A stretch of 64,000 nucleotides of DNA, taken from Protoeuglena noctilucae (lineage: Eukaryota). The notes below the pieces were generated by a model. That model was not told the origin of the DNA. It saw nothing but the letters and a program-made list of their open reading frames with translations, and searched no databases. The position numbers were made by a program, and so were the translations under genes. Location of the stretch: the NCBI GenBank assembly GCA_958009085.1, contig OY253677.1, positions 434,001-498,000 of the forward strand, in the 5' to 3' direction. The first letter of the stretch is position 1. Each line of letters opens with the position of its first letter. Below, piece after piece: positions 16,497 through 40,400 of the stretch.

Positions 16497-19400
16497 TCAC
16501 CGCCTCTTCCCTCCCTGCCCCTTCTCGCCCTTGCCCCCCTCGCCGCTCCTCTTCCGTGCGCCCCGGGCCACCCACTCCGCCCCCGGCCACTGGCTGGGGT
16601 CGCTGTCGCCCTGCACACCCGCCGCATCCGCCACGCCCTCCACCATTGGTACACCGGTCCCCCCGCCCCTCGCCGCCACCAGCAGCGACGCCGCCAGCGC
16701 CTCCAGCCTCTTGGCGCGAGATGCGGCGGCCTCCAGGTCCCGGCTCCTCGCCTCCAGCGCCACCGTCAGCCTCTCAATGCGAGCGTCCCGGGCCCTCACC
16801 ACGTCCCGCAGCAGCCGCTCTGCAAAGACGACGCAGGGGCGGGGAATGCTTCGGTGGCAAGAGAAAGCGAGTGCCGCGAAACGACATTTTACAATGCTCG
16901 CTGTCAACCTCGACCACCAAGCCCTTGCACTTCACACCGTGCGCATCCCCGCCACCAGCGCAGCTCTGCCTGACCCACACCCAGTGACCCAGCTCAGACT
17001 TCCCTACGCCCCTCACCGGTCTCAGAAGACGCCGCTTTGCGCATCGCCGCCGCGTCACGGGCGGCAGCGACCGGCCCATCCCGCGACGCAGTGGCCGCCT
17101 CCGCCAGCGCCCTGTGCCGCGCGCACTCCGCCTCCAGCTCTTCCCTCCTCGCCTCCAGCGCCTCGCACCGCTTCCGAGACTCTCCCAACTGCCCCTGCAG
17201 CACCGCGAGGTCCTTGGCCATCTGTGACGCAAGGTCGCGTCCCTGGGGGGGCGAGAGCGAAGGCGGTGTCGGCACGCCCGGGGTGGGGAGCGGCCATGTG
17301 ATGAGGTGACGTGACGCTCCAGCTAGTGCCCTCTCGACCCTATCTCACCTTGTCCACCACCTCCCGCAGGGCCGCCTTGGCCGCCGCTTTCCCCTCCCGC
17401 TCCCTCCGCGAGTCCTCTGACAGACGCTCGCACCGCGCGCGCAGCACCGCCACCTCCCGCCGCAGCGCCAGCATCGGCTGCCGGGCCGCGGACGCCATCG
17501 CCTGCGCCACCAGCGTCGCCACCGCCCACGCCACACCCGGCCCTGGCCCCTCCCCATCGCCCGTCTCTGCCTCCGCCCGCACATTCCCACCACGGCCCTC
17601 CACCCGCCGCCACCCCCGCCCGCACCCCACGCACACCCCCTCCCGCACCCGCACCCGGGGCAGGCCGCTGCCCCCCGTCCCCACCGGCCCGTGCTCCAGA
17701 GCCACCCTCCTCGCCACCCCATCCGCCGCATCCGCCCCGGCCCTCTCCACACCTGCCACCGCCCCTCTCATGTGCGTCAACGCCTCCACCTGGCGCAGCG
17801 CATTCGCCAGCGCCACCTCCTTTGCCGCCAACTCCCTCCGCAGCAACGCGGTCTCCGAATCGACCCCCACTGACGACCCCGGCCCCTCGACCCCACCGCC
17901 CGCCTCTGCCCTTGCACCTCCAGCCACCTCTGCCTCTACCCTCACACTTTCCGTCACCACCGTCCCGTCTGCCCCCCTTCGCACCCCCGCTTCTGCTGCC
18001 ACCAGCGCTGCCGTCAAGTCCGCACGCTCTCCCTCCAGCGCCGCCACCCGGCCCCGCAGCGCCGCCGCCTCCTCCGCCGCCCTCGCCAGCTGCCCCTCCA
18101 GCACCTCCGCCCGCGTGCTCACCGCCCCCACCTCGCGCTCCGCCTTTGCCTCAGCAACACGCGCAACCTCCTCCGCCCTCACCCGCCCCGCCCTCGCCTC
18201 ACGCTCCCCCCTCTCCGCCGCCTCTACCAAAGCCTCCAGCCGCGCCGCCCGCTCCCTCGCCACCCGCAAATCCTGCGCGAACGCCTCTGGCACGCGCCCG
18301 CGCCAGCCACCCTCCGCACGGTACGCAGCCAACGCCGCCTCCGCCTCCGCCCCCTCCATCCCCACCCCTACCACCCCCGCCAACGCCCCCTCCGCTGCCG
18401 CCGCGCTCTGCTCCCCGTCGTACCGCGCGCTGCCCGCCTGCGACTGCCCCTCCCTCCCCACCACGCCACCTACTGAGTCCCCCACCGTTGGCCCACCCAC
18501 CGCCGTCGCCACCGTCACTGGTGCTGTAACCTGCCCCGGCTGCCGCAGCCGCGACGGAGTCCGCGGCACCCGCGGCGCCCCCGCCGGCGTCCGCAGCGCG
18601 TCGATGCCCTCCGCCCGCGCCGTCACGGGCCGCAGTGCCTCGGCAAACAGCCTCTGCCTCGTGCCACGCACCCCGCTCGTCACGCCCGCACCATCCCCCG
18701 ACCTCCCGCGCCCCGGGCTGCCCTCCGGCACCCTCGCAAGCAAATCCTCCGTAGGTGTTTGCGTTTGTGTTCCCCCATCGCTCCCCTCCCTGCCCCCAGA
18801 CCCCTCCCCCACACCGCCTGGCTCGAACAGGGGGTTGCTTCCCATGCGTCGCTCCCCACGGCTCGACGCTCCACCGCTCTCCGTCCCCCCCGGCGACTCG
18901 GACGTTCCCTGTGACTCCTCTGCCAGGCCCAGCAGGTCCGACAAGGTCGCCTGGGCCCCACCCGTCTCTGCCTCGCCCCCCTCACGCACCGCCCCTCCCA
19001 CCTCGTCACCCTCTCCACCCACTTCCCCCACGTCGATGCGCGCGTCAGACATGGCAAACACCGACGCCGCGCTTCCCAGCTCCGACAGCCCCGGCAGCAG
19101 CGCACCCGAAGCCTCGGGGGACCCCACCGCCCCCGACACTCGCAATGCTGACCGCGCACCCGCCGCATCCTCAGCCAACGCCCCCGACACTCGCGGCTCT
19201 CCACCCACACCCGCCGCATCCTCTGCCCCTTCACCGCGGCTGCTCTCTGGAGCCTCCCACCTCCCGCCACGCGGCGTGCGGCTACCCCCCGCGCCCTTCC
19301 TGCTCCCGCCATGCGCTGCCCCTGTACTCTCGCGCGCCCCCCGCATCGCTCGCCGGCCCTCAGGAGTCTTGGCAGGGCTCATGTCGAAGAACCCGCCCCG

Positions 19401-22400
19401 CCTGCGCCCCGCCACCGCGCTGCCCCGGGCGCTGCCCAGTGGGGATGGGCCCGAGGACCCCGCTGGAAGCCCTGTGCCCCCAACTGCGTCGCTCTGACTG
19501 AGAGCATCCCGGGACAAGGACAGCTCCGTCTGTGCAGCGTCCCTCGGCGTTGCGGGAAGGCCGAACTCCGGGTCCGGCGTGAAGGGCGCGGGGTAGAGCC
19601 CCGCACCCCCCCGCAGCCGCAGCACCGTGTGCGACGCCTCCACTGTCCCCAGCTCCCCTGCACCGTCCCACGGCCCGCCGCCCCCGCGCAGCCGCAGCAC
19701 CGAATGCGGCGCCTCTGCTGTGCCCAGCCCCTGCGGCTCCCTCTCAGCATCCGCTGCAGCAGCGGGGGTCCCTGGGGCCTGGCGCGCCCCCGCAGATGGG
19801 CTGGCCCTGGGCGCGGCTGCTGGGCTCCTGGCCTGGAACCGCGAAGTGCGGGCGGGGGACCCAGGCGCGCCTGTTTGCGCTCTCCCCGCCTGCACAGCCC
19901 TGCGCTTGCCGCCACCTGTGATGCCCTCCCTGCGCCCCCCGCCCCCCCTCTGCTCCCAACAGCGCCGCGGCGGTCATCCCTTCCGCCAGGGACNNNNNNN
20001 NNNNNNNNNNNNNNNNNNNNNNNNNNNNNNNNNNNNNNNNNNNNNNNNNNNNNNNNNNNNNNNNNNNNNNNNNNNNNNNNNNNNNNNNNNNNNNNNNNNN
20101 NNNNNNNNNNNNNNNNNNNNNNNNNNNNNNNNNNNNNNNNNNNNNNNNNNNNNNNNNNNNNNNNNNNNNNNNNNNNNNNNNNNNNNNNNNNNNGGCCTCC
20201 TCGCACCGATGCTCAGCCGCCCTCGCCTCGCGCCGCGCCGCCGCTGCGTCCCCCGCCGCCGCCGCCGCCACCGCTGCCGCCGCCTCCAGCTCCGCCTCCG
20301 CAGCAACCCGCGCCCGCGACTGTGCCGCCCCCTCCTCCGCCAGCACCCCGATCTGCGACTCCGCCTCTCCCAGACGCCGCTGCAGGTCGGCAGCAAGCGC
20401 ACGCGAGCCCTCCAATTCCACCGCCAGTTGAGAAGGGTTTGAGGGACCCTGGGGGACGGCATCAGCCGCCTGTGGTGCTGGCGTAGCATGGTGGTGGGAT
20501 TGGGCGCCGTCATCCAGCAACCGCGGCCCTTCCGACTGCACCCCGACGCTCAACCCTGCTCGCATCTCAGCTGCCTGCGTCCCTGCATTGGACATGGTTG
20601 CAGAGGTGTCTGTGGCAGTGGCCACCGTTAGGGCGAGAGGCGCGGCCTGTGTGGAGGTATTCTGGCCAGGCCTCGCAGCCGTGTCCAGGCTGACGTACGC
20701 GGCTGCCGTCTCAGGGAGGGCCGCCTGGGTTTGGGCGTGCGCGGTGGGGGCGATGGCTGGGTCGGTGCCCCGTTCGGCCGTTGCCGCTGTCGCCCACACA
20801 CCAGCGTCCGCGATCGATGCAGATGCTTGGCCCGCCGCGTCATGCGATGCCGCTTGGGTCGTCTGCTGCCCTGCATCGCGAGCCCCGTCCTGTGTAACAG
20901 TTTCCTCCCCCTGGTCACGCACAGCAGAGCTGCTGGTCTGCTGCTCAGCGTCATGGGCGTGGCGTGCAACCGTCTGCTCGCCCCAGTCATGCACACGTGC
21001 TCCCTCCGTCTGCTGCCCCGCCTCATGATGGACACGCACAAGCGTCTGCTCGCCCTCATCGCGTGTGGCAGTGCGAGCACCGTCCGTCTGCTGCCCAGCA
21101 TCGCGACCCACTCTCACAGGCGTCTGCTCGCCCTCGTCACGCACGCCAGCCCCGACCGTCTGCTGCCACGCGTCGCGAGCCCCGCTCTGTGTGACTGTCT
21201 GCTCTCCCTGTTCGCGCACAGCAGTACCGCGAGTCTGCTGCGCGGCGTCCAGGCTCGCTTGCGCTGTCATCTGCGTCCCGGCGTTGCGGACGGGGGACCG
21301 CGGAGCAACAAACGTCGACACGGGCAGACCAGGGCGGGCAGGGCTCTGCGGCAGCTGCCCATTCGATGCACGCCGCTCCATTGCTGGCCCACCGGCCTCC
21401 TGCACCGTCCCCTGGCCGGCAAGTGTGACCGGTGCAACCGGTGTGTCGGCCTGGGATGCTCGGGACAGCGACAGGGGTACCGCGAGAGAGCCCTGCGAGT
21501 GCACTTCTGCCATAGCCTGCGCCCCTCGCGACACAGTCACGGGGCGTGGGCTTTGAATATCGCTGGCGTCTGTGGGTCGCCCAGACTCGGTCACCAATGG
21601 GAGCCCTGATTGTGCGGTCATTTTGACGGCGCGTCGCAGGTGACCCAGCTCTGCCTCCAATGCCCCCCGCTCCCCACGCAGGCGCCCCAGCTCCGCAGCC
21701 ATGTCCACCAGCTGCCCCTCCAGATCCGCCGCCCTCTGCAGCGCCTCCCCCAGCGCTGCCACCTGCTGCGCCGTCCCCGCTTCCTGTGACGCACGGCGAT
21801 CATTCACTGCACGTGTCGCCGCCTCGCGTGCCGCGGCCAGCTCTTCGCCCGCCGACGCCAGAGCAACCCGCAAAGCCTCTGCGCGGCCCTCTGCCTCAGC
21901 TACACGTGACACCTCCACCAGTGGCAGTGCCTGGTCCCTGGACGGCGTAATGGGGGCCACAGCCGCAGCTGCTGCAGCTGCCGCTTCGGCCTCGGCCACC
22001 CGGGCCTCTGCGGCGGCGAGTAAGCCCGCCAACGCCCGCGCCAGGCGCGCGGCCTCTTCCCTTCCAGTTGCCGCCTCCGCCACCGCCTCTGCCACCCGCG
22101 CTTGCGCCGCCACCACCTCCCGTCGCAACGCCACGTCCCGCTGCTGCGCTGCCTCCTCCACGTCCACGCAACGCGCACGCCACGCCTCCATGCTCCTGCC
22201 GAGCTCCTCCACCTCCCGCCGCAGGCCCTCCGCTGCTTGGACTGCGACGTCGCACTCTCGCTGCGACGCCTCAACTGCCTCCTGCGCCGCCCGCAGTTCC
22301 TCCCGCAAAGCCGCAGCCGCGCCCGCTTCCACCGCCGCGCGGTCTCCCGCCTGCAACGCCGCCTCCAGCGTTGCCCGGAGCACTCGCACTTCCTCCGCCA

Positions 22401-25400
22401 TCGCCCGCTGCCCTGCACCGGCCCGCTCGCGCTCAGCTGCCGCCGCCGCCGCCACTGCCCGCAGCCTCTGCACCTCCCCCGCGACTGCCTCCGCGGGCGC
22501 CGCCCCTGCCGCGTCGACCTGAACCTGCAACGACGCCACCCGCGCACGCAGAGCGCTTGCTTCAGCCGCCACCCCCCGCACGCCCGCCTCCGCCGCCGCC
22601 AGCTCCGCCTCGAGCACCCGCACGCGGTCCCACAGCGCGTGCACCTCGGCCCTCGCGTCCCCCGCCTGCAGCAGCGCCTGCCGAGCCGCGTCCAGGTTGG
22701 CAGACAGGGCCCGAACCTGCCCCTCCAGTGCGCTACGCTCCGCTTGCACCAGCGCCCGACCGGGCGACTCCGGCTCCCAGTTCCTGCCGTCCCCGACGCC
22801 CGCGAGCCGGGGCGTGATGGGGGGCGTCACGCCAGGCAGTGGCAGCGGCAGCGCTAGGGCAGGCACGACGGCGTCACCCCGGCCGGTAGAAGACAGTGCA
22901 CCCTCATGCCCCGCCCCGCCAGAGCCCTCGTCACGGATCACTGAGCTTCCCTCACGAATCGCCGATTGCGCCGAGCGATCTCGCATGACGCTCTCTGCCG
23001 CCTCCACGTCCCGCGCACGCACGCCGAGCTCCCGGCCGGCAGCCTCCACCTTCCCCGCCCGCTTAGACAGCTCGACTTCCCACGCCCGCAACTGCTCTTC
23101 CTTAACTGAGACCTCGCTTGCCCGTGCCTCCACCTCACGCCCCATTGCAGCCAGCTCTCCCTCGCGCTCCGCCGCCCGCCTCTCCCCCTCCACCAGACCG
23201 CTCGCACGCTCCAGCAGCTCGTCCTCCGCCGCAAGCAGCTCTTGTAGTTTCGCGTCCAGTGCCCGCCGCTGCTGCTCCAGCTCCTCTCGCACGGCCAGCT
23301 CACGTGCCTCCCCCGCCCCCAGTTGGGCCTGGAACGATGCCATTGCGGCCTCACGGGCGGCCAGGCTGTCTTGCGACGCACGCAGCTGCGCCTCCAGCTC
23401 TGTTGCTGCAGCCTCCCGGGCGGCCAGGCTGTCTCGCGACGCACGCAGCTGTGCCTCCAGCTCTGCCGCCGCAGCCTCCCGGGCAGCCAGTGCCGCCTCC
23501 GCCTGCCCAGTGACCGCCTCGCGCGCCGCCAGCGCAGACTCCGCCATGCCCACCGCTGCCTCCCTATCCACGAGACCAGCCTGGGCCTCCCAAAGCCTGC
23601 CCTCTTGCTCCCCCAGCGCTGCCTCCCTGCTGGTAAGCGTGGTGGCCACAGCGTCGCCCGTGCGGTCCCCTGTTGAAATTCCCTCCGCTCCCACTGGCCC
23701 GCTCATCTCGGCAGAAGTCGTTGCCGCCGTCACCGCAGGCAGCTCGGCCCTCGCCGCCTCCATTGCCCCTCTCTGTTGCTCCACATCAGCCCTCTCCCTC
23801 TCCACCCCTGCCCTCATCGCCTCCACCGCCGCCCTCTGCTCATCCAACTCCGCCCTCTCCCCCTCCACCTGCATTGCACGCTCTTCCACTGCTGCCCTGC
23901 CCCTCTCCACCTCAGCCATCGCCCTCTCCACCTCCACCGCACGCCCCTCCACTGCCGCCCTCTCCCTCTCTGCCTCAGCCCTCGCCTCCTCCACTGCTGC
24001 CCCCTCCCTCTCCACCTCTGCTCTTGCCGCCTCCACCGCCGCCCTCAGCTCATCCACCTCGGCCCTCTCCCTCTCCACATGCACCGCACGCCCCTCCACC
24101 TCCGCCCTCATCGCCCGCACCCGCTCCTCCTCCTCCAGCACCCGTGCCGCGTGGCCCCGCACCTCCCCTCGCATCACACCCACCCTCGCCTCGGCCTCTG
24201 CCATCTCGGCACGCATCCCCGCCACCCTCGCCTCCGCCTCCGCCGCCCGTGCTGCCGCCCGCTCCAGCGCCTCCTCCGCAGCGTGGTGGTCCGCAAGTAA
24301 CGCGTCGAATCGCGCCTTCCACCCCGCCACCACCCCCATCGCCTCCGTCACTCGCGCACGCAGCGTCTCATTGTCACGACGCAGTGCCGACGCGTCCTCT
24401 GCCCTGCCAACGCTTACGCCCACCCACTCGACGTCCCCGGAGCTCCACAGCGTCGGCAGCGCCCGCACAGGCGACGCCCCAGGGCCCATACCACCCTCCT
24501 GCGCTCTGTCGTGCCTGGGCGCGTGGGTCGACATGCCACCCACAGGTGACGCCGTGACCTCCTCAGGCGCGCCACCATGCCGCTCTGGTGTTGTGGCCCC
24601 GAACGCAGCTGCGTCCGTGCCCAGACCAGCCGTGGCGCCCCTGGTGGCGTCAAACAGAGGGTTCTCTGCCAGACTCGGGGACCGCGGCCGCCTCCACGCG
24701 ATGGGACTGGCAGCCGAGGTGGGGCTGTGAGGCGGCGACGCGTGGCCCGCCGTCTCTGCAGCCAGTGACTCCGCCGTAGGTGCCGAGACAATGTGAACAG
24801 CAGCGTCGGCCGTCAACGTGGTGCCGGGCCAGAGTTGGCGAGCCGTGGCAACCACCGCAACTGCGGATTCCAGCTCCCGCACCCGCCCCGCCAGCGCAGC
24901 GTTGTCGGCCAAGAGCTCCGCAATGCGAAGGGCGTCGTGCGCGGGTGGTGCCCGAGCCGGCGACCATGGTGCGGCGGGCGCATTCACTGGCACGCCTGAG
25001 TCATGCGCCCCTGACGCCTCTGTCAGGGTGCCAGTCGCTTGCGTCGACACGGCGTCAGTCGCCATCCCCGTCTCGGCAGTGATTGGCCGTGCGCCGACCG
25101 CCGCAGAGGCGACGGGGGTGTCAGGGTGGGGAGCAGGGAGGTGCGCCATAGGAGCGACCGCTGAGGCGACACCCATTGGCACTTCCGCCTGCGTCGCTGC
25201 GTCGGCCGTCTCGAGTGGCCTTGCGACGAGCCTCAAGTGCCCGTCTCCGTCGTTCCCCGGGCCGCTGGATGCGGATGAGGATGGCGACGGTGGCTGTGAG
25301 GAGCGTGGGGCGCTGTGGGGTGAAGACGATGACGACGATGGGTTTCCTGATGGACCGCCCGTTTGCGTGCTTGCATGAGCCGGCGCAAGTGTCTCGGCAG

Positions 25401-28400
25401 AGCGCGGGCCGGCAGATGAGTCAGCACCCGCCCCGCCAGTCTCGGGAGCGACGGTCGCCACGTGCTCTGTCCGGCTAGCAGCCACAGCGGCCTCTGCCGC
25501 ACGCAGTTGCGCCGTCGCAGCAGCGAGCTGGTCCTCGAGTCTCCGCGCCCTCGCAGACATCACGGACAGCCGCTCGTCGCGCGCCTCCATCGCACGCCTC
25601 AGCTCCTCCACCGCGGCCAACAGCACTCCATGCTCCGCCGCCGACGCTCCGGGCGTGGCCGCCGGCGTCGCGAGCGCGTGCTGCGGCAGCCACGACTGCA
25701 CCACGGCGTCTGCCAGGTCGCGTGACGAGGACCCCACCCCCGCGTCCACCGTCACTGGCGCCAGAACCGAAACGTCAGAATCCGACTCCTCCGAGTCAGA
25801 AACGGACTCAAGGACCGCAGAGTCGAGGACCGCGGAGTCGGTGAGCGCCGTGTCCCCTGCAGTTTGAGCCAAAGCCCCGACCCCTGCGCTCTGGGCCAAC
25901 AGCGCTGGTCTGCCAGCAGCGGCCGCCCCAGTCGCCACGCCCTCACGTGCGGACTCCCACCCGCGCGGCCGCAGCTCCTCCCCAGCACCGGGTCCGCCGA
26001 GCAGCGGCTGCGCTTCCCCGGCACTTAACGCCCGTGACACCATGCCTGCCTGCTCTGACCCCCCACGTGCGACGCCAGCTGCCGCCGCGGCACCCCCAGG
26101 CGCGGCCTCCGAGGGCGCCACGGACGGCGCCGGGGTGAAGAAGCGCGTGTCCTGGCGCGGCAGGCCCTGGCCGCCCTCCCACGCGGCACTGTCGGCCGTC
26201 TGAGACCCAGCCGCCGTCACTGATGCAACTGCGTGCGATGGCTGCGGCTGCGTGGATGTCCCCGCTTCGACCAGGGGCGACCCGGGCCCCGCCTGGGACA
26301 CCGCGTCGCGCGTCTCGGCGCCCCGCGGCGAGACTGGCGGGGTTCTATGAGGAGGGGTGGTCGACAGCGTGGCAGCGTGACCGGTGTCGTCACGCACGCC
26401 CTCTCCTCTCCCCTCCAACACCACCCTCGCGCGGATGAGTTCCTCGTCCCGCTGGCCCAGCTCCCCGTGCAGCTCCGCCACGAGGGCCTGGAGGCCATCG
26501 ATGCGGGCCTGGAGCGCCGCCTCCCGGTGACGAGCCTCCCTGGCCGCCCGTGCCAACGCCTCTAGCGCTCGCGCCTCCGCCTGCTCCCCGCACGGCTCGC
26601 CAGGGGCAGCACTGGGGTGGAGCTGCACCGGCACTCCCTCTGCCGTTGTCGTCGCTGCGCCAACAAGCGACATCGCTCCCTCAGCCTCGGAACCTTCCAG
26701 CTCCCGTCGCCGGGTCTCGCTTACCTCCCTTTCGTGCTCCAGGGCCGCCTGCAGCTCTGCCGCGCGCCGGAGGTGCGCCTCGGCCTCTCGCTGGGCGCTC
26801 TGCAGTTCGGTCTCCAACGCACGCAGTTGCGCAGACTTCTCGCGGACCGCCTCTTCATGTGATACCACAGTCACGTCGTCTCTCGGTCGCTCTGAGCCAG
26901 GCGTGCGGTCCTCCTGAGCCCAAGCATCCGCAGTGGTTGCGGCAGCCTGCGCAGCGGTCGATCGCACTGGCACAGACGCTGACGCTTCCCTCGCGTTGAT
27001 CGAAAGCACGACTGCCGTCTGCTCGGAGACCACCCTGTCTGTCTGTGTCCATTGGTCGGCCGGGTCGCCTCCGCTGGGCTGTGTTGCCCACACAGGGTCG
27101 CTTTGCCCACTCCCAATCGCCTGCGTGGCCACTGATGACGCTGCCGTCCCAAAGTCGGACCCTGCCGCTGCCTCGACCATCGCTGGGCTGTCCGTCTGGG
27201 CCACCGAGTGCGCCCTCGCAGCGGCGATGAGAGGCGCCTGACGCTCAACGGCATCTCGCAAGACATCGTCCGTCTGCATGGACGTCTCCTGCGCCTGCCC
27301 GCCAGCGCTCGCCGACGCTGCCCTTGGCTCGTCGCTGTGCACGACCAGGGTGATGGTGACGGGCGTGGGGGCACCCTGCACTGTCAGATCGGCTGTCTGC
27401 GCCATGGTCGCGACCGTGGAGCGCGCAAGGTCGCCACTCGAATGCTCATCCGTTTGCACTCCCTGCACGGCCCTGCCACGCTCATCGGAATCCCCAAGGG
27501 CCTCGCCGGAGCCAGTCTCAAGTGTGACAGGTGCGACGGTCTGTGTGCTTGCGTGATCTCCCAGGACCCGCGGCACCTCCCCACGGCTCACGGCAGCCTC
27601 GGGCAGAGTCTGGGACGCCCCGTCAGCGACCGCAGACGTCGCCTGCACCGCCGCTGGGACCGCAGAGACCTCGGGAGACTGCGCGACGGCATCAGCAAAT
27701 GTCAGGGTCGCCAGATGCTGAGATGATGTGCTACGCGTAGTTGGTGCTGCATCGTGCTGAGCCGACGCGTCAGCCGCGGTGGGTGCTGCCCCATGTTGAG
27801 ATGCGGCATCAGCCGTGGTAGTTGCCGCCGCACGCTGAGTCCCAGCATCAACCATTGCCGGTGCTGCACCATGCTGAGTCGCAGCGTTGGTCTGGTCTGT
27901 CCAAGCGCTTGCCTGGGTTGCCGCCTCCGCTGTGGCACTGCGGTCCGTGGCAGTGGCCGCGTCGGCAGTCAGAATCGCACGCGTCGCAACAGCAGCATCG
28001 CTGAGTGCTACAGCTTCCGTCATTGTAAACGCATCGGATCCGGGAGCAACTCCGTCAGAACCACGCGCATCGTGGGGCGCACTTGCATTGGTCGCCGATG
28101 CTGCCGGTGCGTTGCCTGCGCCAGCCGTGGCAGAGGCAACAGCGCGGACGGGGATCATGACCGGATCCATGGTCGCCCCGAACACCCCTGCAAATGGTGG
28201 CGCGTCCGTGCCCACATCTGTCGTGTGGACACGTTCCGTGTCCGTCGATGCGTCTGCCACCATGGCGCGTCGGACGCCTGCCCCAGTCTCAGGCAGTCCC
28301 TCAGGCCCCAGCGCGTCTGCCTGGGCGACCGCATTTGCCACCGCGTGCACGCCGAATGCCTGGGGCTCGGTGCCCGTCGAGGCATCCATGCCTGCGACAC

Positions 28401-31400
28401 CCGGGGTGGCGTCCGTGGTCATACCTGCGTCGACGAGTCGCACATCAGGCCGAGCCTCCATGGCGGTCGAGGCGTCGATGCCAGCCACACGTGGGGCGGG
28501 ATCTGTGTTGGTGTTTGCATCGTTGCTTGTGACCCCAGGCTCAGTGCTCGTGGCTGCGTCGTTGGCTGCCACCCCAGGTTCAGCGTCCGTGGCTGACACA
28601 GCATCGAGGCTAACCACGCGCCGAACGGCGTTGGTGACTGTTGCCGCGTCCACAGCCGCCACGCCAGAGGACTGGTCGTCCGTAGATGTCGCTGCGTCGA
28701 TGGCAGTAACTCGCGGTGCGGCATCCGTTGCAGTGGCGGCATCGAGGCTGGTTGCGCCAGGTGCGGCGTCGGTGATGGTAGACACGTCTGTGCCCCGGAA
28801 GCGAGGCTGGACATCTGTTGTTGTCGTCGTGGAAGTACCGACGGTTGCAATACCCGCCTCGGCATCCGTGACCGACCCCACATCGACGAGTTGGATACCG
28901 GCGTGAGCGTCCGTGGCAGTGTCTGCGTCGACACCAGCCGCATGCGGGGCAGGATTTGTACCCGTGGATGCGTCATGGCGTGAGACACGAGACGGAGTAC
29001 CCACAGCAGGAGTAGTAGCAGTACCCGCACCCTCTGCTGCAATGTCAGGCTCAGTGGTGGTGAGCGCATCGGCCCTCTCGACATGAGGCGGGGCATCCGT
29101 GGCTGTCGCCGCGTCGAGGCTGGCGATGCGAGGGATGGCGTCCGTCATAGTAGACGCAGCCGCGCTCTCAGGCAGGGCCCTGGGCTCCACACTCCTTGTC
29201 TGAGCCGCAATGACGGCAGTTGCGGCCACAGCCTGGGCACCGGCGCTGTGCATCGCAAGTTCCTCCCCCACCGCCGCTTGCACACCAGCACTGTGCATGG
29301 CGGGTGCCTCTCCCACTGCCGCATCCACCCTCGCCCCATCTCCCCCATCGCGCACCACTACTGGCATGTCGCTGTGTTGCGTCCCAAAGTCTGTCGTCTG
29401 CACCGCCTCCGTCACTGTCCCACGCTCCACCCCTCGCAGCTCCCCGCCCGCCTGGGTCGCCGCCTCGCTCGCCCCCCCCCCCGCCTGAACGCCCTGCTCC
29501 ACGTCCCCAGCAACTGCACCACCAGACCCCGCCTCGCCACCCACCACGCGCTGCCCTTGGTCGCCCGAGACCTGGGGCCCCTCCCCAGTCCCCCAGACCC
29601 ACGCATCACCCTCCTCTGCGCTGGCGTACCCCTCCTCGTCGCCGCCGCTCGACTCTGGCGAGTCCCATGCGCTGCGAAACTCCAATTCCGACGCAGCGAC
29701 AGAAACCGCACGCGAGCGCGCACCGTGACCACCCCTCCCGGCCCCGCGTCGCTCCGATGCCGAGCGTGTCGAGCGCGGTTGAGGGCCGGGCCAGGCGATT
29801 GCCTCGGATGGGGCAACGGATGACGGGGAGTGGAAGGCGGTGCCAGTCTCACTCCGCGTCCGCGACAGCGCCCCCAGGGACCGGTGACGTGGGGTGGCGG
29901 TCTCGGACCTGGGGCCGGCATGCGCCGCGTCCCTCGCGCTCAGGCTGGCGCCCGCGAGCAGGGACTCGGGCGCGACCACTGACAGTGGCGGGCGACGGCG
30001 GGGCACTGTCGTGTCGGCCGCTGTCATAGACACCTGGACAGCAGCGTCGGCGCGAGTTTGGCCGGAGGGAGCCTCAAACGTGCCGGGACGAGCCGCATGC
30101 TCAGCTGGCTCTCCCGGCTGCAACTGGGCAGGTGGCGTCTGCGCGGACGCGTCGGCTGTTGTGACGGCCGCGACAGCATCGCTGCCTGCATCCACGCGCT
30201 CCACGGTTGCGGCATGCGACGCGCTCGCACGCGGCTCCTCCGCCGGCTGAACAGCGGCCGCCCCAACCCCTCCCTCCGTCTGCACGTGGCCGTCCGCCAC
30301 ATCCACCGCCAACCGCGGACCTCGCGCCTCGTCGCTGCGTCGGCCCTCCCCCAGCGCCGCCGCCATCTTCAACGCGGCCAGCTCTCTGCGCAGCCGCTCC
30401 ACCTCCGCCTCGCGCTGCGCCACCGCCGCCGCCGCCGTCGCCTTGCCCCACGACCCCTCCGCCCCGCCCTCGCCGCGCCCCGCCAGCTCCCCGTCCCGCA
30501 GAGCCAAGTCCCGCTGGAGCCCCTCTGCCACGCCCTGCAGCCACTCCGCCCGACGCCGCTCCGTGTCCGCTGCGTGCTGGGCTTCCTGCCACTGCATGAC
30601 CACCTCCGCCAGCTCCCCACGCAACTCCGTCACCGCTCCCTCCGCAGCCCGCGCGCGCTCCTCCCAGTCCACCGCCCCTGCCGCCGCGTCCACATGCGGA
30701 CCCCCTGCGCCACTTGCGGGCTCTGGAAGGGACTGCTCACCTTCGTCCCCTGACGATGTCGACACTGACCCCACCTCATCTACGCGTGACGATGGTGACG
30801 GGGGCACCGAATGGTCCCCCCCGCCCGCACCCGCGCCAGTCGTGAACGCATCGCCACGCGTCGAGTCTCCTGCCCGCCTCGAGTCTCCTGCCAGCCGCTG
30901 GTGGAAGTCGCGGTCGCTGGGGGACGTGGCGAGGGTGGCGGACGGCAGCGTCGACGGCGGCTGCACTACACGCGGCGGCGGCGAGAGACCCGGCGTCGAC
31001 GCAGCGTCCTGCTCCACTGTGCTCCGTGCTGCGCTCGGCCCGCGGATGACAAGGGGCAATGCAGGTCCACGCACCGTAGTCGTAATGGCGGGCGCACTCG
31101 GCACACCGCTGTCCATCGCAGCGACAGCGTCCCAGTCCGCGACCGCGTGGGCCTGCGCCTGGTGCCGTAGCGCCTCCACTTGCCGCCGCAGCTCGGCAAT
31201 CTCAGCCTGCGCTGCGTCCCAAGCAGCTGGGCCACCCCCCATGTCCGCTGCACCGTCTGTCATCCCATGCGCTGCACCGTCAATCCCAGAGTCAGCCGCG
31301 TTTCCAGCGCTGTCCGATGTCAGTGCTATCATCGCGCGTGGGACGGCCAGCGAGTCCCCAGGAACCGGGGTTGACACCGACCCCGCCACCCGCCTGGCCT

Positions 31401-34400
31401 CCGCCTCTGCCGCCGCCAGCGCAGCCCAGCTGGTGCCGAACGCCCCCACGTCTGTCTGCACATTTGCGTCTCGCACCGCCCCCTCCGCCTGCATCGCGAT
31501 TAACGATGCAGCCGGGACATTCCGTGACCCCTCTGCCACGCTGGCTGCTGCCCTCGGCCCAGCTGTAGACGCATCCACGCCCTCTAGAGCTCCTGAAGCC
31601 TCAACAGCCCCCGGGCCAGTCCCAGTCTCGAACGCAGAGGACGCGTCGAGGAATGCTGCAGCGAACTCTGCGTCCATCGCCTCGTGGGCCAACCGACGCG
31701 ACTGCTCCAACGCCGCACGCAGCGCCACCACCTCCGCCTGCGCCGCCCGCGCCCGCATCTCCGCCTCCTCGGCGCGCCGCAGCAGCGCCCGCGGCCCCGC
31801 CGGCAACCCCGCCCTGCCGCCTGGTCCACTGCCACCCTCTCCGCCTTCGCTGGATGACTCGTCTGATGCCGCACCAGAGGGCCCTTCGCTGGTCTCCAAG
31901 GATGAGTATGAGTCTGACGATCCCGCAGACGCCATCTCCACGATCGCCGCGCCTGAGGAAGGGGCTGGGACGTGGCCTGCAGCTGCGCTTGCACCCGCAT
32001 CCCCCATACCAGGGTCGGCATCACCGTCCCCGCGCGCCGAGTCCTCGGCCCTCACAGCAGCCACCAGGGCTTCTTGACGCATAGGTGCCTCAGTCTGCGC
32101 GCCCTGCCGTGCCACTTCTGCCCCCGTTGCCTCCTGCGGGGTCCCTTGGGCCATCGTGGGCTCCCCCGTCACCCGCGGGACCCTCACAGGAGACCCAGGG
32201 ACCGCAGATGCTTTTTCTTGCATGGAATTGATGAAGTCCATCTGCGCCCGCGCCCTCTGCAGCTCAGCCGTCCGCTGCTCGAGCAGCTGCCAGGCGTGGC
32301 TGGCTTCCTCCGTGAGCCTCGCGACCTCAAGCGAAGCCACCATCGCCTCTTCCCTCGCAGCCTCCAGCGCCGCACGCAGGGCGGCTGTGTCCTCGAAGTC
32401 CCCTGCATTGCCAAGGGTGCTAACCACGACAGGAGCGGCGGTGGACGGGCTGAGTGGGTTCGTCTCTTGTGGGTGGAGAGGCTCTGCCTGTGCTGCAGCC
32501 TCAGCGGTGCTGACCCCTGCCTGCGTGGTTGCTGCTCCCATTGCCAGAGGCTCCGACTGTACTGCAGCCTCCCCAGTGCTAACCCCCGCCTGCGCCCCAA
32601 AGTCAGCACGCTCCGTCGACCTGGCCAGACGCTGGGCTGTAACAAGACCAGCAGAGTCGTCCTCAGCAGCATCCGCCCCTCTATCAGATGTCTTTGCTGC
32701 TGCCTGAACCGCCCGAGCCTCCCCCGCTTGCGGCATTGTGCCAGTCCCGGCCTCCGCCACGCCCGCCACCGCTTGCACTCCGCTGTGGGCGCGCTCGCTC
32801 ACAACGGCGTCAGTGCCATGAGCACGCTGGCTGGGATCGCTGGCGTAGGCATCAGTGCCCGCGCTCGTGATTGCCGGCACTGCCTGCACCCCCCCATCCA
32901 CGCCCTGAATCATCTCCATGACAGTGATGGCCTCGGCTGTCCCCATCACCGCCTGTGCACCGCCATCGGCACGCTCGCTGCCGCTTGCATCAGTGCCGAC
33001 CTCGGCTGTCGTCGCTGCCGCCTGCATCCCGCACTCCATGCCGTCGCCTACAGCCCTGAGGGCCCCCGGCGTCGGTGAGTGAGGCGACGTCTGCGCAACG
33101 CCGTCCACAGTCAGTTCCTGTGCCTGCAGAGCCACGTCCCGCACCGCCGCTGGGTCCGTCTCCGTTGCCACGGCCACGTCGACAGGGCGCGGCACAGCGC
33201 TGACGGCGTCCGGCGCGCCTGCACCGACCGCCAGGGGTGCAAGTGGCCGAGACTCCCCACTCGCACGGCCCTCTGCCACAGAGCTCTGCACCGCAGTGGC
33301 TGCCGTCTCTGCCACCGTCTGCGTGGCTTGCGTGGCTGTGACTGGAACCGCCTCCCCACAAGCGACCGTATTGGATGGGGCAATGATGGGCCGCGGTGTC
33401 CCTGTCTGGGTCAGCTCTGCACCCTCGACGTCAGCAAAGGTATCTGTTTGCGTCGACCCTTGCTGGGACACAAGCACAGCACCGTCCGTCTGCGTGGATC
33501 GCAGCTCGGCGGCCACCCCAGCACCGTCCGTCTGCGTCCCATGCATCGCCATCTCGAACACCGCCTCGACCCCAGCGGACGCCACCGGAGCCCTCGCCAC
33601 CAGTGCCGCATCCACCCTCGCCGCCAGCGCTTCGCTCTGGTCCAGCAGAGCGCCGCTCCCGGTCGCCAGGTCCGCAAGGACGTCCGCCAGGTTTCGAACC
33701 TGGGACCTTAGGGCTTCGTTATCCGCAGCTAGACCGGCCGCGTGCAACGCCGGCGCGTCCGTCGGCACGCCCGGTGGGGCGACCGTGAGGGCGAGTGTGA
33801 CGGGGCGACCGTCACGGGGCGACCTCGCCACCGCATCTGTAAATGTGCCCTGTTCCATTGTGCTGGCAGTCACAGTATCTGTTTCGGTCCCCTGCTCCAG
33901 TGTTCTGCTGGCGACTGCATCTGTAGCTGTACCCTGCTCGAGTGTGCTGGCAACCGCATCTGTAGATGTACCGTGATCCATTGTGGCAGCAAGAGCATCA
34001 GTCACCGTGCCCTGCTCCACCGCGGATGACGGAGGCACGAGGCTGTTGTCCTGCCACGCCCTCGCAACCTCCGTCAGCCCCGCACCCTCCGTCTGCGTCC
34101 CCTCCGCAGCCGCAGCATCCAGCCCCGGGCCGTCCTGCGTGCCTGCCGTCACCAATCCACGGCCGCTCGCTGCCATCTCCCTTCCCACCAACGAAGCCGC
34201 ATCGACCCCACTCACGCCCTCCGTCTGAGTCTCTATCGCCAACCCCACTGGCGGTGCCCTGCTTACCCCACCCGCATCATCCGTCTGAGTCTCTGCCCCC
34301 AGCCCCGCCGCACGCGGCCCAGCCGGGCTTGGCAAAGCGACCGCATCCGTCCCAGCGTCCGCGACATCCACCTCGTCGTCCCCGCCCACGCGAACCGACC

Positions 34401-37400
34401 GCAGGGCAGCGAAGCTCGGCCCAGCCGCCACGTCCACCCCGCGCCCCTCAGCGCCCTCTCCCACCCCCACAGACGCCGTCGACACAAAGCTGGGCCCAGC
34501 TGCCACATCCACCCCATGCCTCCCAGCGCTCTCTCCCACCCCCACAGACGCCGTCGACAAGAAGCTAGGACCGGCTGCCACGTCCACCCCATGCCTCTCA
34601 ATGCCCTCTCCCACCCTTACAGAGGTCCTTGACACAAAGCTAGGCCCGGCTGCCACGTCCACCCCACGCCCCTCAGCGCTCTCCCCCACCCCCACAGACG
34701 TTGTCGACAAAAAGCTAGGGCCGGCTGCCACGGACCGCCGCTCCACCTCCGCCTCCACGCCTGCCGAGCGCCGCTCCAAGTTGGGGCCGCCTGGGACACT
34801 GCTAATCTCCGTCTGCGCGCCCGCATCCTCAGCTGTGGTTGGTGCACCAGTATCCGTCTGCGCACCGACATTCTCGACCTCGGCCTGTGCACCAGCACCA
34901 GCGTCCGTCTGTGCGCCAGCCTCAGTCTGAGCACCGACATCCCCAGCCTCGGCCTGTGCACCCACATCCCCGCGTTCCCTTTGCTCTCCAGCCCCCCCAG
35001 CCTCGGTCTGTGCGCCGGCAGACGCGGCCGCTGGTGCCACTGGCGTCGACGGAGTTGCAGCGGCGCGACGGTCCAGCATCCGGACAGTGTGGTTGCGTGC
35101 AGCAACGAGAGCCTGCGGGGTGGAATAGGAAACACTTCATTTACCGCGTACCTAGCAGTGCTCGGCCCTTAGCCCATATCTAGCAACACAAACATCTCAC
35201 ACGCACTGCGGCAGCACGTCTATGCTTAGCCGAACATGCCTTGCAATTCAACCCACGCCACTCACCCCCCGGGTCACGCGCAGTGCTCCTTGCAGCTCAG
35301 TGACAACCCCGCGCAGCGTGGCGAGCTCCGACTCGAGCTGACCCACCCGCGCCTGCGCCTCCGAATCACCCACAGCCGAGGGCCCGGCCGACTCTGTCAG
35401 GGTCTGCGTGTCACGCGTTGCCACGGCATCAGCCGTGACCTCAGGTGCCCCCCCAGCACCTGCAGGCGCTGCCTTAGCAGCTGTCGAAGCCACCGGGGGC
35501 CCTGCAGCTTTGTCCGGCTGCGCCCCAGCACCCCTCTCGCGTGCCTTGCCGCTCTCCGCCGCCCGCAGCTTGGCGCGCAGGTCGTGGATCGCGTGGTCCC
35601 GCCACGACACCTCGGCCTGCAGAGCGCGCACCCGGCGGCTCGCATCTTCCGCTTCCTGCCTGGAGGCCTCCAACAGGCCCCTCAGCCCCGCCAGGCGCTC
35701 GCCCTCCGCCCCCGCTCCCGGGTGCTGCGGGGCTGGGCTGGGCCCCGGTGAGCGTGCCTGCGTCGCCATCTGCGACGTCCCCAGAGATGAGCGGACCGGA
35801 GAGGGTGAGACCACCGGGCTGGCCGCGGTGGCCTGGCCGGCTTTGCCTGCTGCCATCGGCGCCGGCACGATCTCCGGCTCTGGGGGCGGAGGTACCGCCC
35901 TGCTATGGGCGAGCGGGAGGTTGACGCCGGTGGCAGTGGGCGTCGCGCCATGCGTCGTTCCTAAGGCATGTTCCGATGGACCCACGAGATCCATCAGGGC
36001 AGAGAGGTCCTGGGCCTCGCTGGCCTGCAGCAGGTGCCGCAGTGCCTCCACCTGCGCCCGCAGCTCCCGCAGCTCCGCCTCGCGCCCCGCAGCAGCTGCA
36101 CCTCCGGCCTCCGACGCAGCAGGGGCGTCCGCGGGCGCTGGGGTCGGCGGGGCGCTGGGCGACGCAGCGGCGACAGCGGCAGTGACTCGTGCAGCCAGCG
36201 TGGGTTCTGTCGTGGCAGTGAATGCGTCGCATCCGCGGTCTGCCACGGTCGGCGCTGCCTGCACGCCCGACTCGGTCAGCTGCGTCGATGCGGCAGTTTG
36301 AGACGGAGACTCGAGTACCGCAATGGCTGGGCGTGGGTCGCCCACTGCTGTCGCATCCGGGGCTGACGTCTGCGTCGCCAGGTGGATGCCCTCGCTTGAG
36401 CCAGCAGAGCCATCCGCCTGCGACGCCGCACTCGTGGCATCTGGCCGGGCTTGCGTGGCTGCGGTGGCGCTCGAGCGATGGCTTCCTGCCTCCACCGATG
36501 CGTCTGCCATCGTCGCGCCCTGCTGCGTGGCTGCGTCCGCAACCTCGCCTCGCTGCGACTCGGTCTGAGCGACGACACTGGAGTGGGACTGGGCGAGTGA
36601 CTGAGTGCCCACATCGGCGCCAGTGGGCGCCATTGCTGCCTGCGTCGCCTCGTCTGTGCCCTGAACGGGGCCTGCCTGTGTGCCAGCAGTGAAACCCGGA
36701 TACACCACCCCCGCCTGTCTCGCCCCGTCTGCGACCCGCGGAGGGCCTGCCTGGGTGCAAGCAGCAACGTCCGCATGCACCACCACCGCTTGTGTCGCCT
36801 CGTCTGTGTGCTGTACATGGCTCACTTGTGTGCCAGTATCGGCGCCCGCCCGCACCGTTCCCTCCCGTCGTTGCGCCGCCACCTCCTCTGCCACCCTCGC
36901 CTCCATCGCATCCCGCTCCCGCCGCCACGACTCAGCCAAGCCCTCCGCGTCTGCCACCCGCGCCTCCAGCATCGCCCTCTCCTGCCTTGCCGTCTCTAGC
37001 GCCGCCTCCGCCTCCCGCACGCGTCCCATCAGCGCCGTGCCCGGCTCGCCTCCTGCCACCTGCGCCAGCTCTGCCGCCAGCGCCCCCACCATCGCCCGCT
37101 CCTGTGCCAGGGCCTCTTTCAGAGCGTCGATGTCCAAGCGACCCAAAGTCGACGCCCTCTCTGCCGACGCCAACTCCTCCCGCAGCTGAGCAGCCTCCGC
37201 CTCTGCCGTCGTCAGTCGCTGGCGCTCCATGGAAAGTGCCTCTTGCATGACTCGCAGCTCAGCGCGGACGTCGGCCAAGGCCGCGCGCAGAGCATCGACT
37301 GCCTCTGCATCAACCGGAGCGCTCGTTTGCGCCTGCGGTGGCTGGCTGGGCTGCCCGGTCGACTCTGCCCCGCTGGCAACGTCGCGGCGATCTGCCACGT

Positions 37401-40400
37401 CCGTCCCCACCCCCACGCTGGCAGCCAACGCTTGCCCCTCCCCACTCGCAGCATCGTGCTTGCCAACTGTGTCAGTCCCCACCCCCACGCTCGCGGCCGA
37501 TGCCGGGCCGTCCATACCCGTGCCCACGCTACGCTCTTCAGGCGCCCCCTCTCCCGCTTGCACCCCTGCCTCGACCCCCTCCCCCACGCGCCCCACCCCG
37601 TTGACCGCCTCTGTCGATGCACCCGGGTTATCAGGGGCAGACATTGCCGCATCGATCTGAGAGAACTGCCGCTCGAGGGCCGAAGCGAGCGACGCGGCGC
37701 GGGACAGATGCTCCGCCACCGTCGCCCGCCAGTCGGCGCTGCCACCCTCGTCCTCATCACCAGCACTGGACACCAGCCCATCTGCATCCGCGCCTGTCTC
37801 GGTGCCGCCCGTCTCTTGCGGGGATGAAGCGACCTGAGACTCGGCGCCCGCCACGGCACTCCACGCCGCGTCCACCACCGCCCGCAGCTCCCCCTGGCCT
37901 TCCCGCACCAGACGGACCACATCCTCCATGACGCCCATTGCCTGCGCGCGACCCACCGCCCGGCCCTCCGCACGCTCCGCCCGGCCCCGCTGCACGGCCG
38001 CCTCGGCTCGCAAAGACGCGCGCTCGGCCTCCGCGGCGCGCAGGGCCGCGCGGGTGGACGCCAGCTCCCCAGCCGTCGCCTCCAAAAGCGTTGTCGCCTC
38101 CGCCAGCTCTCGCACCGCCATCGCCACTGCTGCCTCTGAGCCTACCTCGTGGCTGGAAGTGCTCGTGCCCACATCTGTGGCAGCGATGGTCCCCGTCGCC
38201 CCACGCAGCTCGTCCGCCGCCGCCCTGGCTTCCTCGGCGCGACGAGCCGAGTGCTCCGCCCTCCGCCTCGCATCCTCCCCCTCCACCTCCGCCGCCGCAG
38301 CTCGCGCGCGCGCCGCCGCCAGCTGCGCTTCTGCGTCCGCCAAGGCCGCGCGTAGGGCGTCCCTCTCTTCCTGATTCCATTCCTCGCCCTCTGCCTTTGC
38401 GGGGGTTGCAGCGTCGGACCCGGCAGCTGCATCTGCACGCATCGACGGACGCTCTCTCTCCGCCCGCTCCCTCTGCGCCGCCTCCAACACTGCCTCGAGC
38501 TCCGCTGAGCGAGCGCGGGCCGCCTTGACGTCCTGCAAGCAGAGCAAGGGACGTGGCATGAGCCTTACATTGGTTAGCTCTGACCAGGCACCCATCGCCA
38601 CACCACCACTGAGCCAGCTACCAATTTTTACAGTGCTGGTCACAGCAACAGCCCACTTGCCTCCAGAAGAGCCTTCGCCGCTGCCGCCTCCACCTCCGCG
38701 GCTGCTTCGGCGGCCATCCGTTGCATCTCCGCCTCTCTCGCGCGCGCCTCGACCTCCCGGATCGTCCACCCCAGCTCCGCAATCGTCGCCTCTGCCTCTG
38801 CCGCGCGTCTCTCCGCGTCCTCAGCCATCGTCTCTGCCTCTTTAGCATGTCTTTGCGCTTCGTCAACCACCGCCTCTGCCTCTGCCGCGCGCCTCTCTGC
38901 GTCCTCCACCGCAAAGGACACGTCCCGAGGCTCCACGCCCCCTCGCAAAGCAAGCAGGGGCGAGGCTTGGAGGGGCGAGGCTTGGACAGACGAGGCTTGG
39001 AGAGGCCCGGTGGGGAGGGGCGAGGCCCACGCTGGCGACGCAGGGGGGGACGCTCTTTGTGAAGGCGGCTGGGGTGACGAGGCCGGCCGAGCCTTCTGCA
39101 TTGCGGTAAGAGAGCAGCGTAGGGTCGCGAGCAGATGCAGCACCGTCGATGGCGAGAAGAGAAACGACAGAAGTGATACGCAAACCAGTGTTGCCGAGCA
39201 ACGCCCATGCGACGCGCTCAGTCCCACCCCTCAGCCCCGCTCCCGCACCTCCATGGCAGCTTGCAGCTCCAGCAGAAGCGCTCGCTGCGTCGATTTCAGC
39301 TCCGCCGCTTCTCTCTCCACCGCCGCCAGCGCCGCCTCCGCCTCCGATGCGCGTCTGCGTGCCTCCGCCAGCGCTGAGCCCAACTCCACGACCCGCGCTT
39401 CCAGATTCCGCACATCCGCGGCGTCCCTAGTAAACCCGGCATCCTCGCGGGGGGCGACCTCGCTCCCTGCCGCGCCCAGCTCCGCCGGGGTCGCCTTGCC
39501 AGGGCCCCTCGCCTCCCCCTGCACACCCGCATCCCCGCTCTCGCTGCGGCCCGCCTGCCCACCCGCCAAGTCACGGCGCAAGTCATCGCCGCTGGCCGTG
39601 CTGGACGCGCCGGGGCTGTCCGCCTGCTCCCCCCCGCTTCTGACACTCGCGTCCGACGCTGACTCTGCCAGTGACCCTGGCCCGGAGGTCTGCACGGCCT
39701 CCTCGGCGCACGGCGGCCCCGACGACTGCCGCGACATGGGCTGCAGGGTGCGAAGGAGGGCCCTCGTGGCCTGCAGCTCGGCGTCGCGGGTTGCTGCCTG
39801 GGCACGGTCGGCCAGTCCGCGGCGCACGGCCACGTCCAGCTCGGCACTGCGATGGGAGACGGGACATGTGGGATATCTTATAGTTTACTGCATATCATGT
39901 TCTTATAGCTTACTACATATCATGTAGTATCTATGCTATCTTATGAATATCGACGCACGGCATCAGGTTCACCGACAACTGCAGTTGCATCTGTCCCCAG
40001 GTGCCCTCAGCTCATCGCGTGACATCCACTTATAGTTGCATTTGTATCTCCCACTCACCGCATCAGGTTCATGGACAGATGCATCTGTTCCCACGCACTG
40101 CCGAGCTCATCCGTCTGCACCGAGGCGTCGCCCCACGCGTGGACCGGCCCAGCGCCACCAGCGCCCGCCTCGTCCACCACGCCACGCGATGCTTGACCGG
40201 GCACAGCCACTCTTGAGCTGACTCTTTGAATGGCCCCAGCCTGCCCAACGCTCGTTTCATCAATCGCCGCACCCACGCGTGACGCACCCCCAGCACCCGC
40301 ACCACCCCCTGCACCCGCACCACCCATCGCCCCCTCCGGCGAGGCAGGGACCAGGGCGTTTGCCCCCCGAGCCTCCGCCAGCCGAGCTGCCAGGTTCCCA

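Follow-up and report, generated by a model that had tools for sequence, protein, structure and literature searches.

A degenerate LC8-like seven-residue template in the disordered spacers of a giant orphan protein of Protoeuglena noctilucae

Introduction

Several clients of LC8 (DYNLL) carry more than one docking site, and some of them are the closest known counterparts of a giant gene on the minus strand of a 64,000-nucleotide stretch of Protoeuglena noctilucae DNA (assembly GCA_958009085.1, contig OY253677.1, positions 434,001 to 498,000), here called the window, in whose own numbering all positions are given. The predicted product of this gene carries arrays of LC8-like motifs. The L2 linker of human KANK1 binds at least 15 LC8 dimers cooperatively through weak non-canonical sites and forms rods; isolated peptides do not bind, and cooperativity is given by short, uniform linkers of 3-4 residues between anchors of the TST/TNT, VNT, VMA and IGC types (bioRxiv 10.1101/2025.07.16.665182). 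The statement of the original prediction for this locus that known clients carry about a dozen sites or fewer is therefore outdated. Yeast Nup159 (DID-Dyn2), which has 5 sites with linkers of 4-5 residues, and ASCIZ/ATMIN both form LC8 beads-on-a-string duplexes. Linkers of 6 and 9 residues gave homogeneous complexes in ASCIZ (PMC10046861), which has 7 sites in the fly, and 10 motifs of ATMIN are listed in Table S4 of PMC6607443. In Chlamydomonas RSP3, five motifs (TQT, TQTQT, IQT, TQT and TQI) placed 17-31 residues apart precede a dimerising helix in the N-terminus (PMC3392930).

Like KANK1, the giant protein sets coiled coil next to a long disordered region with many weak LC8-type motifs; unlike KANK1, it distributes its motifs over more than 6000 residues in several distinct arrays among many helices, its linkers are of 5-7 rather than 3-4 residues, the two sequences are unrelated, and its LC8 sites are putative. 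TQT-type sites in tandem are shared with Nup159 and ASCIZ/ATMIN, whose sites are strong, mostly TQT and well flanked, whereas TQT is a minority here, flanks are rich in Ala and Gly, and Lys or Arg at -3 (counting the Q of TQT as position 0) is nearly absent. The RSP3 binders ADTSTQTD and TDAITQIE resemble the D-A/T-x-T-Q-T-D template of the giant gene, but RSP3 is small, conserved and of known place in the radial spoke, while for the giant protein no homologue or domain was found. Validated 8-mers of Chica/FAM83D, WWC1-3 (KIBRA), MAG and myosin Va have D-A at -4/-3 or T-[N/L/M]-T-[D/E], as here; unlike those of the giant gene, their sites are isolated or few, most with Lys at -3, and do not form arrays. 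No paper linking LC8 or TQT arrays with green-algal or prasinophyte-type algae was found in the literature searched. Of these systems, KANK1 would be the nearest to the locus.

Results

A seven-residue template shared by distinct arrays

The pattern of LC8-like motifs is genuine: it is not random, and it is preserved as protein sequence within disordered spacers between the long helices of a giant orphan protein. This region forms the core of a single giant nuclear gene of more than 7000 codons from a GC-rich marine green alga, and two stop-free minus-strand frames, of 5130 codons (19747-35136) and 1190 codons (35251-38820), contain the exons on which the counts are based:

35266-38820, minus strand: exon A of the giant gene, containing helix-like segments, a disordered block rich in TQ near 36300-36830 and, at 37405-37491, SVGVGTD twice.
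35113-35265, minus strand: candidate intron of 153 nucleotides (GTGAGT...CAG, phase 0 to 0), predicted from the sequence, across which exons A and B are joined in frame.
20194-35112, minus strand: giant exon B, within the open frame 19747-35136, which is broken by a 200-N gap at 19994-20193.

The template was derived from all 88 T[DE] dipeptides with no further selection; here and below, counts cover exons A and B (6320 residues) unless said to be gene-wide. Upstream of these dipeptides, D occupies -4 in 24/88 cases (5.2 times the expected frequency), G occupies -2 in 30/88 (3.5 times), T occupies -1 in 31/88 (5.0 times) and Q occupies position 0 in 21/88 (5.0 times), Ala being the commonest residue at -3; the pooled consensus reads D(-4) A(-3) G(-2) T(-1) Q(0) T(+1) D/E(+2). 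Its degenerate form, [D/E]-A-[G/S/A]-[T/A/V]-[Q/x]-T-[D/E], is carried by at least six arrays that differ in unit length and in sequence, the two GRSVG[VT]ATE units of an upstream exon being one of them. The conserved motif residues are written with varied synonymous codons (ACG/ACA/ACT/ACC, CAG/CAA, GAC/GAT and three Gly codons) and the DNA tandem repeats are only 67-90% alike; the template is therefore maintained as protein sequence rather than newly copied as DNA.

Two controls were used, 300 shuffles of the whole sequence (global) and 300 shuffles inside blocks of each size from 30 to 300 residues (local). TQT occurs 13 times against a global mean of 1.6 (maximum 7) and local means of 2.0-2.7, and at every block size none of the 300 shuffles reached 13. 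[TVI]Q[TV] occurs 20 times against a global mean of 7.3 (7.3-9.9 across shuffles), a count attained by 1/300 local shuffles at block size 30 and by 0/300 at the other sizes. QT[DE] is found 21 times (global mean 2.9) and T.T[DE] 31 times (global mean 4.4, about 5 overall), while the permuted tripeptides TTQ and QTT are found twice each and TQT occurs 0-2 times in the five alternative reading frames of this DNA. Among dipeptides seen at least 15 times, TD, QT and TQ are the three most over-represented, and D stands at -4 from Q in 51 cases against 16 expected. Counting each group of tandem copies once, which by the author's own grouping leaves about 8 independent places with TQT, still gives a Poisson P of 0.0003-0.007. 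SQ is not enriched (23 against 22.8 expected), and for this reason the idea of an S/T-Q kinase cluster was demoted.

The motif strings quoted in the original prediction (ELRSTQTD, QQGSTQTD, LGAETQTD, RDANVQTD, QETSMQTD, ADQWTQTD, [DA]HASTQT and SVGVGTD, the last twice) are all present in the minus-strand frame. Its count of dozens of TQT-like motifs holds only for a loose pattern of 57 sites (13 TQT, 7 other [TVI]Q[TV], 13 xQT[DEP] and 24 TxT[DE]), but anchors with a precedent among validated binders ([TVI]Q[TV]) number only 20 within 20480-37560 and 25 gene-wide, or 32 if S at -1 and I or C at +1 are allowed, with 9 T-[NML]-T sites in addition. The spacing of 10-25 residues claimed there applies to 18 of the 56 gaps between successive loose-pattern sites, the others falling outside that range, whereas the placing of the motifs in repeat blocks between coiled coils was borne out, with 0/57 sites inside helix-like segments.

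Motif arrays

The sites are grouped as follows:

34807-35016, minus strand: seven units of a G-A-Q-[TA]-[ED] array (for example GDVGAQTE and EDAGAQTE), with LC8-like flanks and an AQT anchor that has no binder precedent.
34411-34732, minus strand: five VG-anchored 25-residue repeats, AAGPSF[LV]S[TR][TA]SV[GR]VGE.. (TRF: period 75, 4.3 copies, 83% matches).
34086-34302, minus strand: three TQT[DE] sites, LGAETQTD, LAIETQTE and AAEGTQTE, 20 and 44 residues apart.
33834-34020, minus strand: five units of 13-14 residues, [LMV][ED][QH]-G-T-x-T-D, with G, T, T and D invariant and position 0 free (V, S, A, E, F).
33312-33549, minus strand: TQT array of AMHGTQTD, ELRSTQTD, QQGSTQTD and GAELTQTG, exactly 14 residues apart, with ATQATQTV 29 residues further on.
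27942-29163, minus strand: the largest of the arrays, consisting of roughly 17 D-A-[AS]-T-x-T-[DE] units, many 13-15 residues apart, including TNT, TMT and TST anchors, which have binder precedents.
27036-27558, minus strand: scattered sites DHASTQTV, AVQGVQTD, QETSMQTD, AHSVAQTD and ADQWTQTD.
20860-21207, minus strand: eight units of R-D-[EA]-G-[EQ]-Q-T about 12-14 residues apart, with LC8-like D(-4) and G(-2) and with E or Q at -1.

In the array at 33834-34020, Gly is encoded by three different codons and so is Thr, pointing to conservation at the protein level. Runs of at least three sites with short, uniform linkers and flanking helical segments are found in the TQT array (14 residues), in the GTxTD array (13-14) and in the DAxTxTD runs (15), and repeat periods of 13-15 residues leave linkers of 5-7 residues between sites. 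The VG anchor of the 25-residue repeats is not a standard LC8 motif. Relatives of these repeats were noted in other exons (SVGVGTD at 37405-37491 and GRSVG[VT]ATE at 41254-41307), and the VG- and VA-type anchors of all these units resemble only the weakest KANK1 predictions.

Architecture of the predicted protein

Composition and structure prediction together show a protein in which predicted long alpha-helical, coiled-coil-type rods alternate with disordered Thr/Gln/Asp-rich spacers, the latter composed of several distinct short-repeat arrays. By a composition heuristic, 24 helix-like segments take up 21% of the residues; Ala makes up 22%, Gly 10%, Glu 8.5% and Lys 0.3%. One rod segment and the largest motif array were modelled with AlphaFold2 (AF2), both in single-sequence runs:

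23161-24321, minus strand: example of a rod segment, with AF2 helices of 205 and 169 residues (mean pLDDT 88.2) and periodic repeats of 14, 21 and 35 residues.

The array at 28327-29169 (281 residues), on the other hand, gave a mean pLDDT of 39.9 and no secondary structure. Within the rod, the coiled coil at 23740-24321 has nested periods of 42, 63 and 105 nucleotides (TRF), that is 14, 21 and 35 residues of E-V-E-R-E-R-A-A-V-E type, suggesting that the helices, like the spacers, were generated by repetition.

No Pfam family scored above cut-offs in any open frame of the giant gene of at least 45 residues. Residues 230-640 had no homologue among long proteins; residues 1-1200, compared with 1.84 billion representatives, returned only a 168-residue fragment of the same sequence and a spurious Tyr-rich repeat protein; residues 1200-5000 had no homologue in the "near" and "shorter" protein lengths; and the ESM Atlas gave unnamed clusters only, at or below 0.90. 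The 168-residue fragment (P0003, from an ENA contig of 2922 nucleotides) is the sole database twin, with 98% identity over residues 1-142. By eye it fits the first 138 or so residues of the Met-started product of exon B and diverges inside the 25-residue repeat array, a pattern that suggests the end of a contig or a collapsed repeat more than a sequence variant.

Evidence for and against a genuine giant gene

Beyond exons A and B, the gene probably extends in both directions:

17343-19973, minus strand: open frame on the downstream side, 877 codons long and coiled-coil-like, carrying GGTQTQTP near 18761, just below the N gap.
39234-45010, minus strand: upstream open frames, coiled-coil-like, with AVAQTQTD (41805), GDASVQTD (40117), AEEAVQTS (39692) and two GRSVG[VT]ATE (41254-41307).

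The downstream frame probably continues exon B past the gap in a different frame, the frame of 19747-35136 and that of 17343-19973 being shifted across 19994-20193, and the upstream frames are probable further exons, with a provisional exact splice pattern. Negative GC skew runs from about 16000 to about 46000. A DNA contig from an independent study (run X3) shows 0 differences over 30444-37579; X3 contig sequence also reaches about 1.2 kb below 20305 and may span the gap.

Contigs of three metatranscriptome libraries match many exon parts with 0 mismatches, for example 33590-34053; they are of low depth on the giant gene, and the RNA libraries may carry DNA. The spliced joint of the intron at 35113-35265 was not seen among the RNA-library contigs, whose cover in the flanking bins is low, and this is not evidence against splicing. 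RNA joints with sides of only 20-25 nucleotides lying inside repeats were set aside as repeat artefacts. Since the libraries may hold DNA and no spliced joint was seen, transcription of the gene is likely but not proven.

In principle the long frame could have arisen in assembly, or could be a repeat region that is decaying or was never translated, rather than a functional protein gene. The window does contain three scaffold gaps of 200 N (19994-20193, 43337-43536 and 61690-61889), the protein searches returned no homologue apart from a fragment of the same sequence, and RNA support is limited to low-depth contigs. Such an origin is nevertheless highly improbable: the 5130-codon frame faces 50-130 stops in each of the other five frames of the same DNA, the independent DNA contig is identical, contigs from three RNA libraries match without mismatch, the GT..AG intron is in phase, AF2 gives long, confident helices, and variation at the conserved motif residues is synonymous. 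Taken together, the long frame, the in-frame intron, the second-study DNA and the zero-mismatch contigs, the giant gene appears real.

Comparison with LC8 motif rules

LC8 motifs have T, V or I at -1 and +1, Q(0) as the most conserved residue and P, D or E at +2; they admit no bulky aromatic at -2, favour a large side chain at -3 and have a polar residue, never a hydrophobic one larger than Ala, at -4 (Jespersen 2019, PMC6607443). In a hand tally of the 79 binders of Table S4 of that work, -4 is D in 31 and S in 20; -3 is K in 21, R in 7 and A in 6; -2 is S in 20 and G in 19 (39/79 together); -1 is only T (62), I (7), V (6) or S (4); position 0 is Q in 74, N in 3, L in 1 and M in 1; and +2 is D in 20, E in 17 and P in 12 (D/E 37/79). 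The template of the giant gene agrees with these preferences at -4, -2, -1, 0, +1 and +2 and disagrees at -3. D-A at -4/-3 does occur in three validated binders (Chica IDAATQTE, Chlamydomonas RSP3 TDAITQIE and WWC3 CDAGSQTD; PMC6607443). Anchors without Q have been validated as well, all with D(-4) and D/E(+2): TNT, TLT and TMT in VDKETNTE, KDSYTLTE and DDKNTMTD (PMC6607443), TMT again in dASCIZ (PMC10046861), and TST/TNT in KANK1 (bioRxiv 10.1101/2025.07.16.665182).

Several observations weigh against LC8 binding. Many TQT peptides fail to bind LC8 (PMC6607443), and TQT accounts for only 13/57 sites here. Position -3 is mostly Ala, a residue found there in 6/79 binders against 28/79 with Lys or Arg, in a protein with almost no Lys; Arg stands two residues before TQT at 2 sites only (ELRSTQTD and ATRDTQTL) and Lys at none. 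Q is missing from position 0 in 24 sites, where that position varies freely, and in the two largest arrays T(-1), T(+1) and D(+2) are constant while position 0 is V, S, A, E, F, G, N, M, T, I or D, which is the reverse of what LC8 selection alone would predict. In 13 sites, -1 is A, E, Q or M, residues found there in 0/79 binders of the tally, and the listed non-binders include an AQT peptide, IRS1 VDTAAQTN (PMC6607443). Gene-wide, 9/25 [TVI]Q[TV] anchors break no qualitative rule and 4/25 also have P, D or E at +2. No orthologue that could speak for conservation of the motif was found in the protein searches listed above, and the possible DNA content of the RNA-library contigs, with no spliced joint among them, counts on the same side.

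Flanks were scored with the author's crude matrix of four flank positions, calibrated on the same 111 peptides and distinct from LC8Pred. By this measure the 32 precedent anchors average 0.73 bits, close to non-binders (0.49) and far from binders (5.26, sd 2.3), which also speaks against binding, while TxT[DE] (5.16) and xQT (4.26) sites are binder-like, partly an effect of their selection on +2. A good anchor thus tends not to go with good flanks. With the binder-versus-non-binder matrix, 16/32 precedent anchors and 5/9 T-[NML]-T sites fall within 1 sd of the binder mean, from which about 15-25 credible sites are estimated.

The preferred reading of the protein, tentative and with real reservations, is that of a multivalent LC8 client with some 15-25 credible sites, closest to KANK1, Nup159, ASCIZ and RSP3. 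The LC8 polymer of the original prediction keeps the support of a consensus fitting at six of seven positions, of disordered spacers and of linkers of 5-7 residues, but most array units lack Q(0) or T(-1) and the flanks of TQT sites are mediocre. Its fuller form, in which most of the 50-60 template sites, T-x-T-[DE] and xQT included, would be cooperative weak LC8 sites taking up several dozen LC8 dimers per parallel dimer, is unlikely.

The freedom of position 0 suits the main rival account, according to which the spacers are lineage-specific, low-complexity Thr/Gln/Asp-rich sequence, grown by local duplications in a fast-evolving orphan and resembling LC8 sites by coincidence. They would then be flexible acidic linkers between coiled coils, possibly with phospho-acceptor arrays, T-x-x-[D/E] being the minimal casein-kinase-2 consensus. 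The absence of any homologue or Pfam family in the searches made, DNA tandem repeats degenerate at 67-90% matches, two largest arrays invariant at G/A-T-x-T-D while the LC8-critical Q position is free, non-binder-like flanks at the true TQT sites and predicted disorder of the array at 28327-29169 are all in keeping with this account. Six of seven consensus positions fitting LC8 preferences is much to ascribe to coincidence, however; arrays of different unit length and sequence converge on one template, the excess survives both local shuffling and the collapse of tandem copies, and SQ at its expected count does not fit a generic S/T-Q kinase cluster. An origin of this kind is a serious possibility, though on balance a doubtful one.

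Alternatively, the template might be read by another module, either a phospho-threonine reader of FHA type or other T-x-T strands, whose self-association would give a threonine ladder in a beta-sheet or solenoid. Rad53 FHA1 prefers pT-x-x-D, and T(-1) with D(+2) supplies T-x-x-D in all 24 TxT[DE] and 7 TQT[DE] sites; invariant T(-1) and T(+1) around a free position 0 would also suit one face of a strand. AF2 shows no strand or solenoid in the largest array, which is weak evidence given the single-sequence run, and neither form explains the fivefold enrichment of Q(0) or the enrichment of G(-2), leaving this distinctly unlikely. A beta-solenoid formed by the T-x-T array was dropped as the leading interpretation when AF2 found no structure.

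On the side of LC8 itself, an algal-type protein of 91 residues (P0016; PF01221, E 5.5e-43) was found, and a metagenome contig of 55% GC carries an intron-free LC8 gene of 91 residues and chlorophyte type (L004:519-794, minus strand). Of 121 loci fetched with an LC8 motif pattern, 48 have a candidate frame that is full-length and confined to one exon; in a few of the 48 the N-terminal half is not LC8-like, and these frames probably represent last exons prolonged to a Met further upstream.

Genomic setting

The window is nuclear DNA of a GC-rich photosynthetic eukaryote, with a GC content of 58-75%, and this stretch is contained in marine metagenome sequencing runs and in runs of one named organism. 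Around the giant gene lie the following features, the last five being ordinary eukaryotic genes in intron-split pieces:

8521-9108, minus strand: exon of the ferredoxin-thioredoxin reductase catalytic beta chain (PF02943, E 2e-38).
15573-16127, plus strand: open frame encoding a right-handed beta-helix region (PF13229, E 5e-11), immediately beyond the downstream side of the giant gene and on the opposite strand.
48081-48674, minus strand: S1 domain.
50833-51504, plus strand: ribosomal S6.
52007-53385, plus strand: DRG-type GTPase (MMR_HSR1 with its extension, and TGS).
54869-55561, minus strand: mitochondrial pyruvate carrier (MPC).
57435-58330, minus strand: ORMDL.

The ferredoxin-thioredoxin reductase exon indicates that the DNA comes from a photosynthetic eukaryote.

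Discussion

If the protein is a multivalent LC8 client, the template would be an LC8 docking strand, and the coiled coils would hold two parallel chains in register beforehand. LC8 dimers might then bridge the chains at a subset of sites, the roughly 15-25 with T/V/I-Q-T/V or with precedent TNT, TMT, TLT and TST anchors. Many individually weak sites, separated by linkers of 5-7 residues, would bind cooperatively, and floppy spacers would thereby become beads-on-a-string rods, so that the length and stiffness of a very long filament could be set by LC8 supply. Such a filament would most plausibly be seated in the flagellar, basal-body or cytoskeletal system.

Should LC8 not bind, the locus would be a clean case of a convergent seven-residue template in an orphan protein and a warning against counting TQT look-alikes as binding sites. 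Should most of the template sites bind, the protein would far exceed every known LC8 client in valency, and would be either a micrometre-scale filament tuned by LC8 supply or a major LC8 buffer in a tiny algal cell.

If LC8 does bind, the arrays would provide natural test sets of non-Q anchors (T-A-T, T-S-T, T-G-T and T-V-T) for refining LC8 prediction. RSP3 being the only characterised multivalent green-algal LC8 client found in the literature searched, the giant protein would be a second green-algal case. It would also widen the principle by which many weak motifs and short linkers turn disorder into rods, from the one 15-site linker of KANK1 to a modular giant filament.

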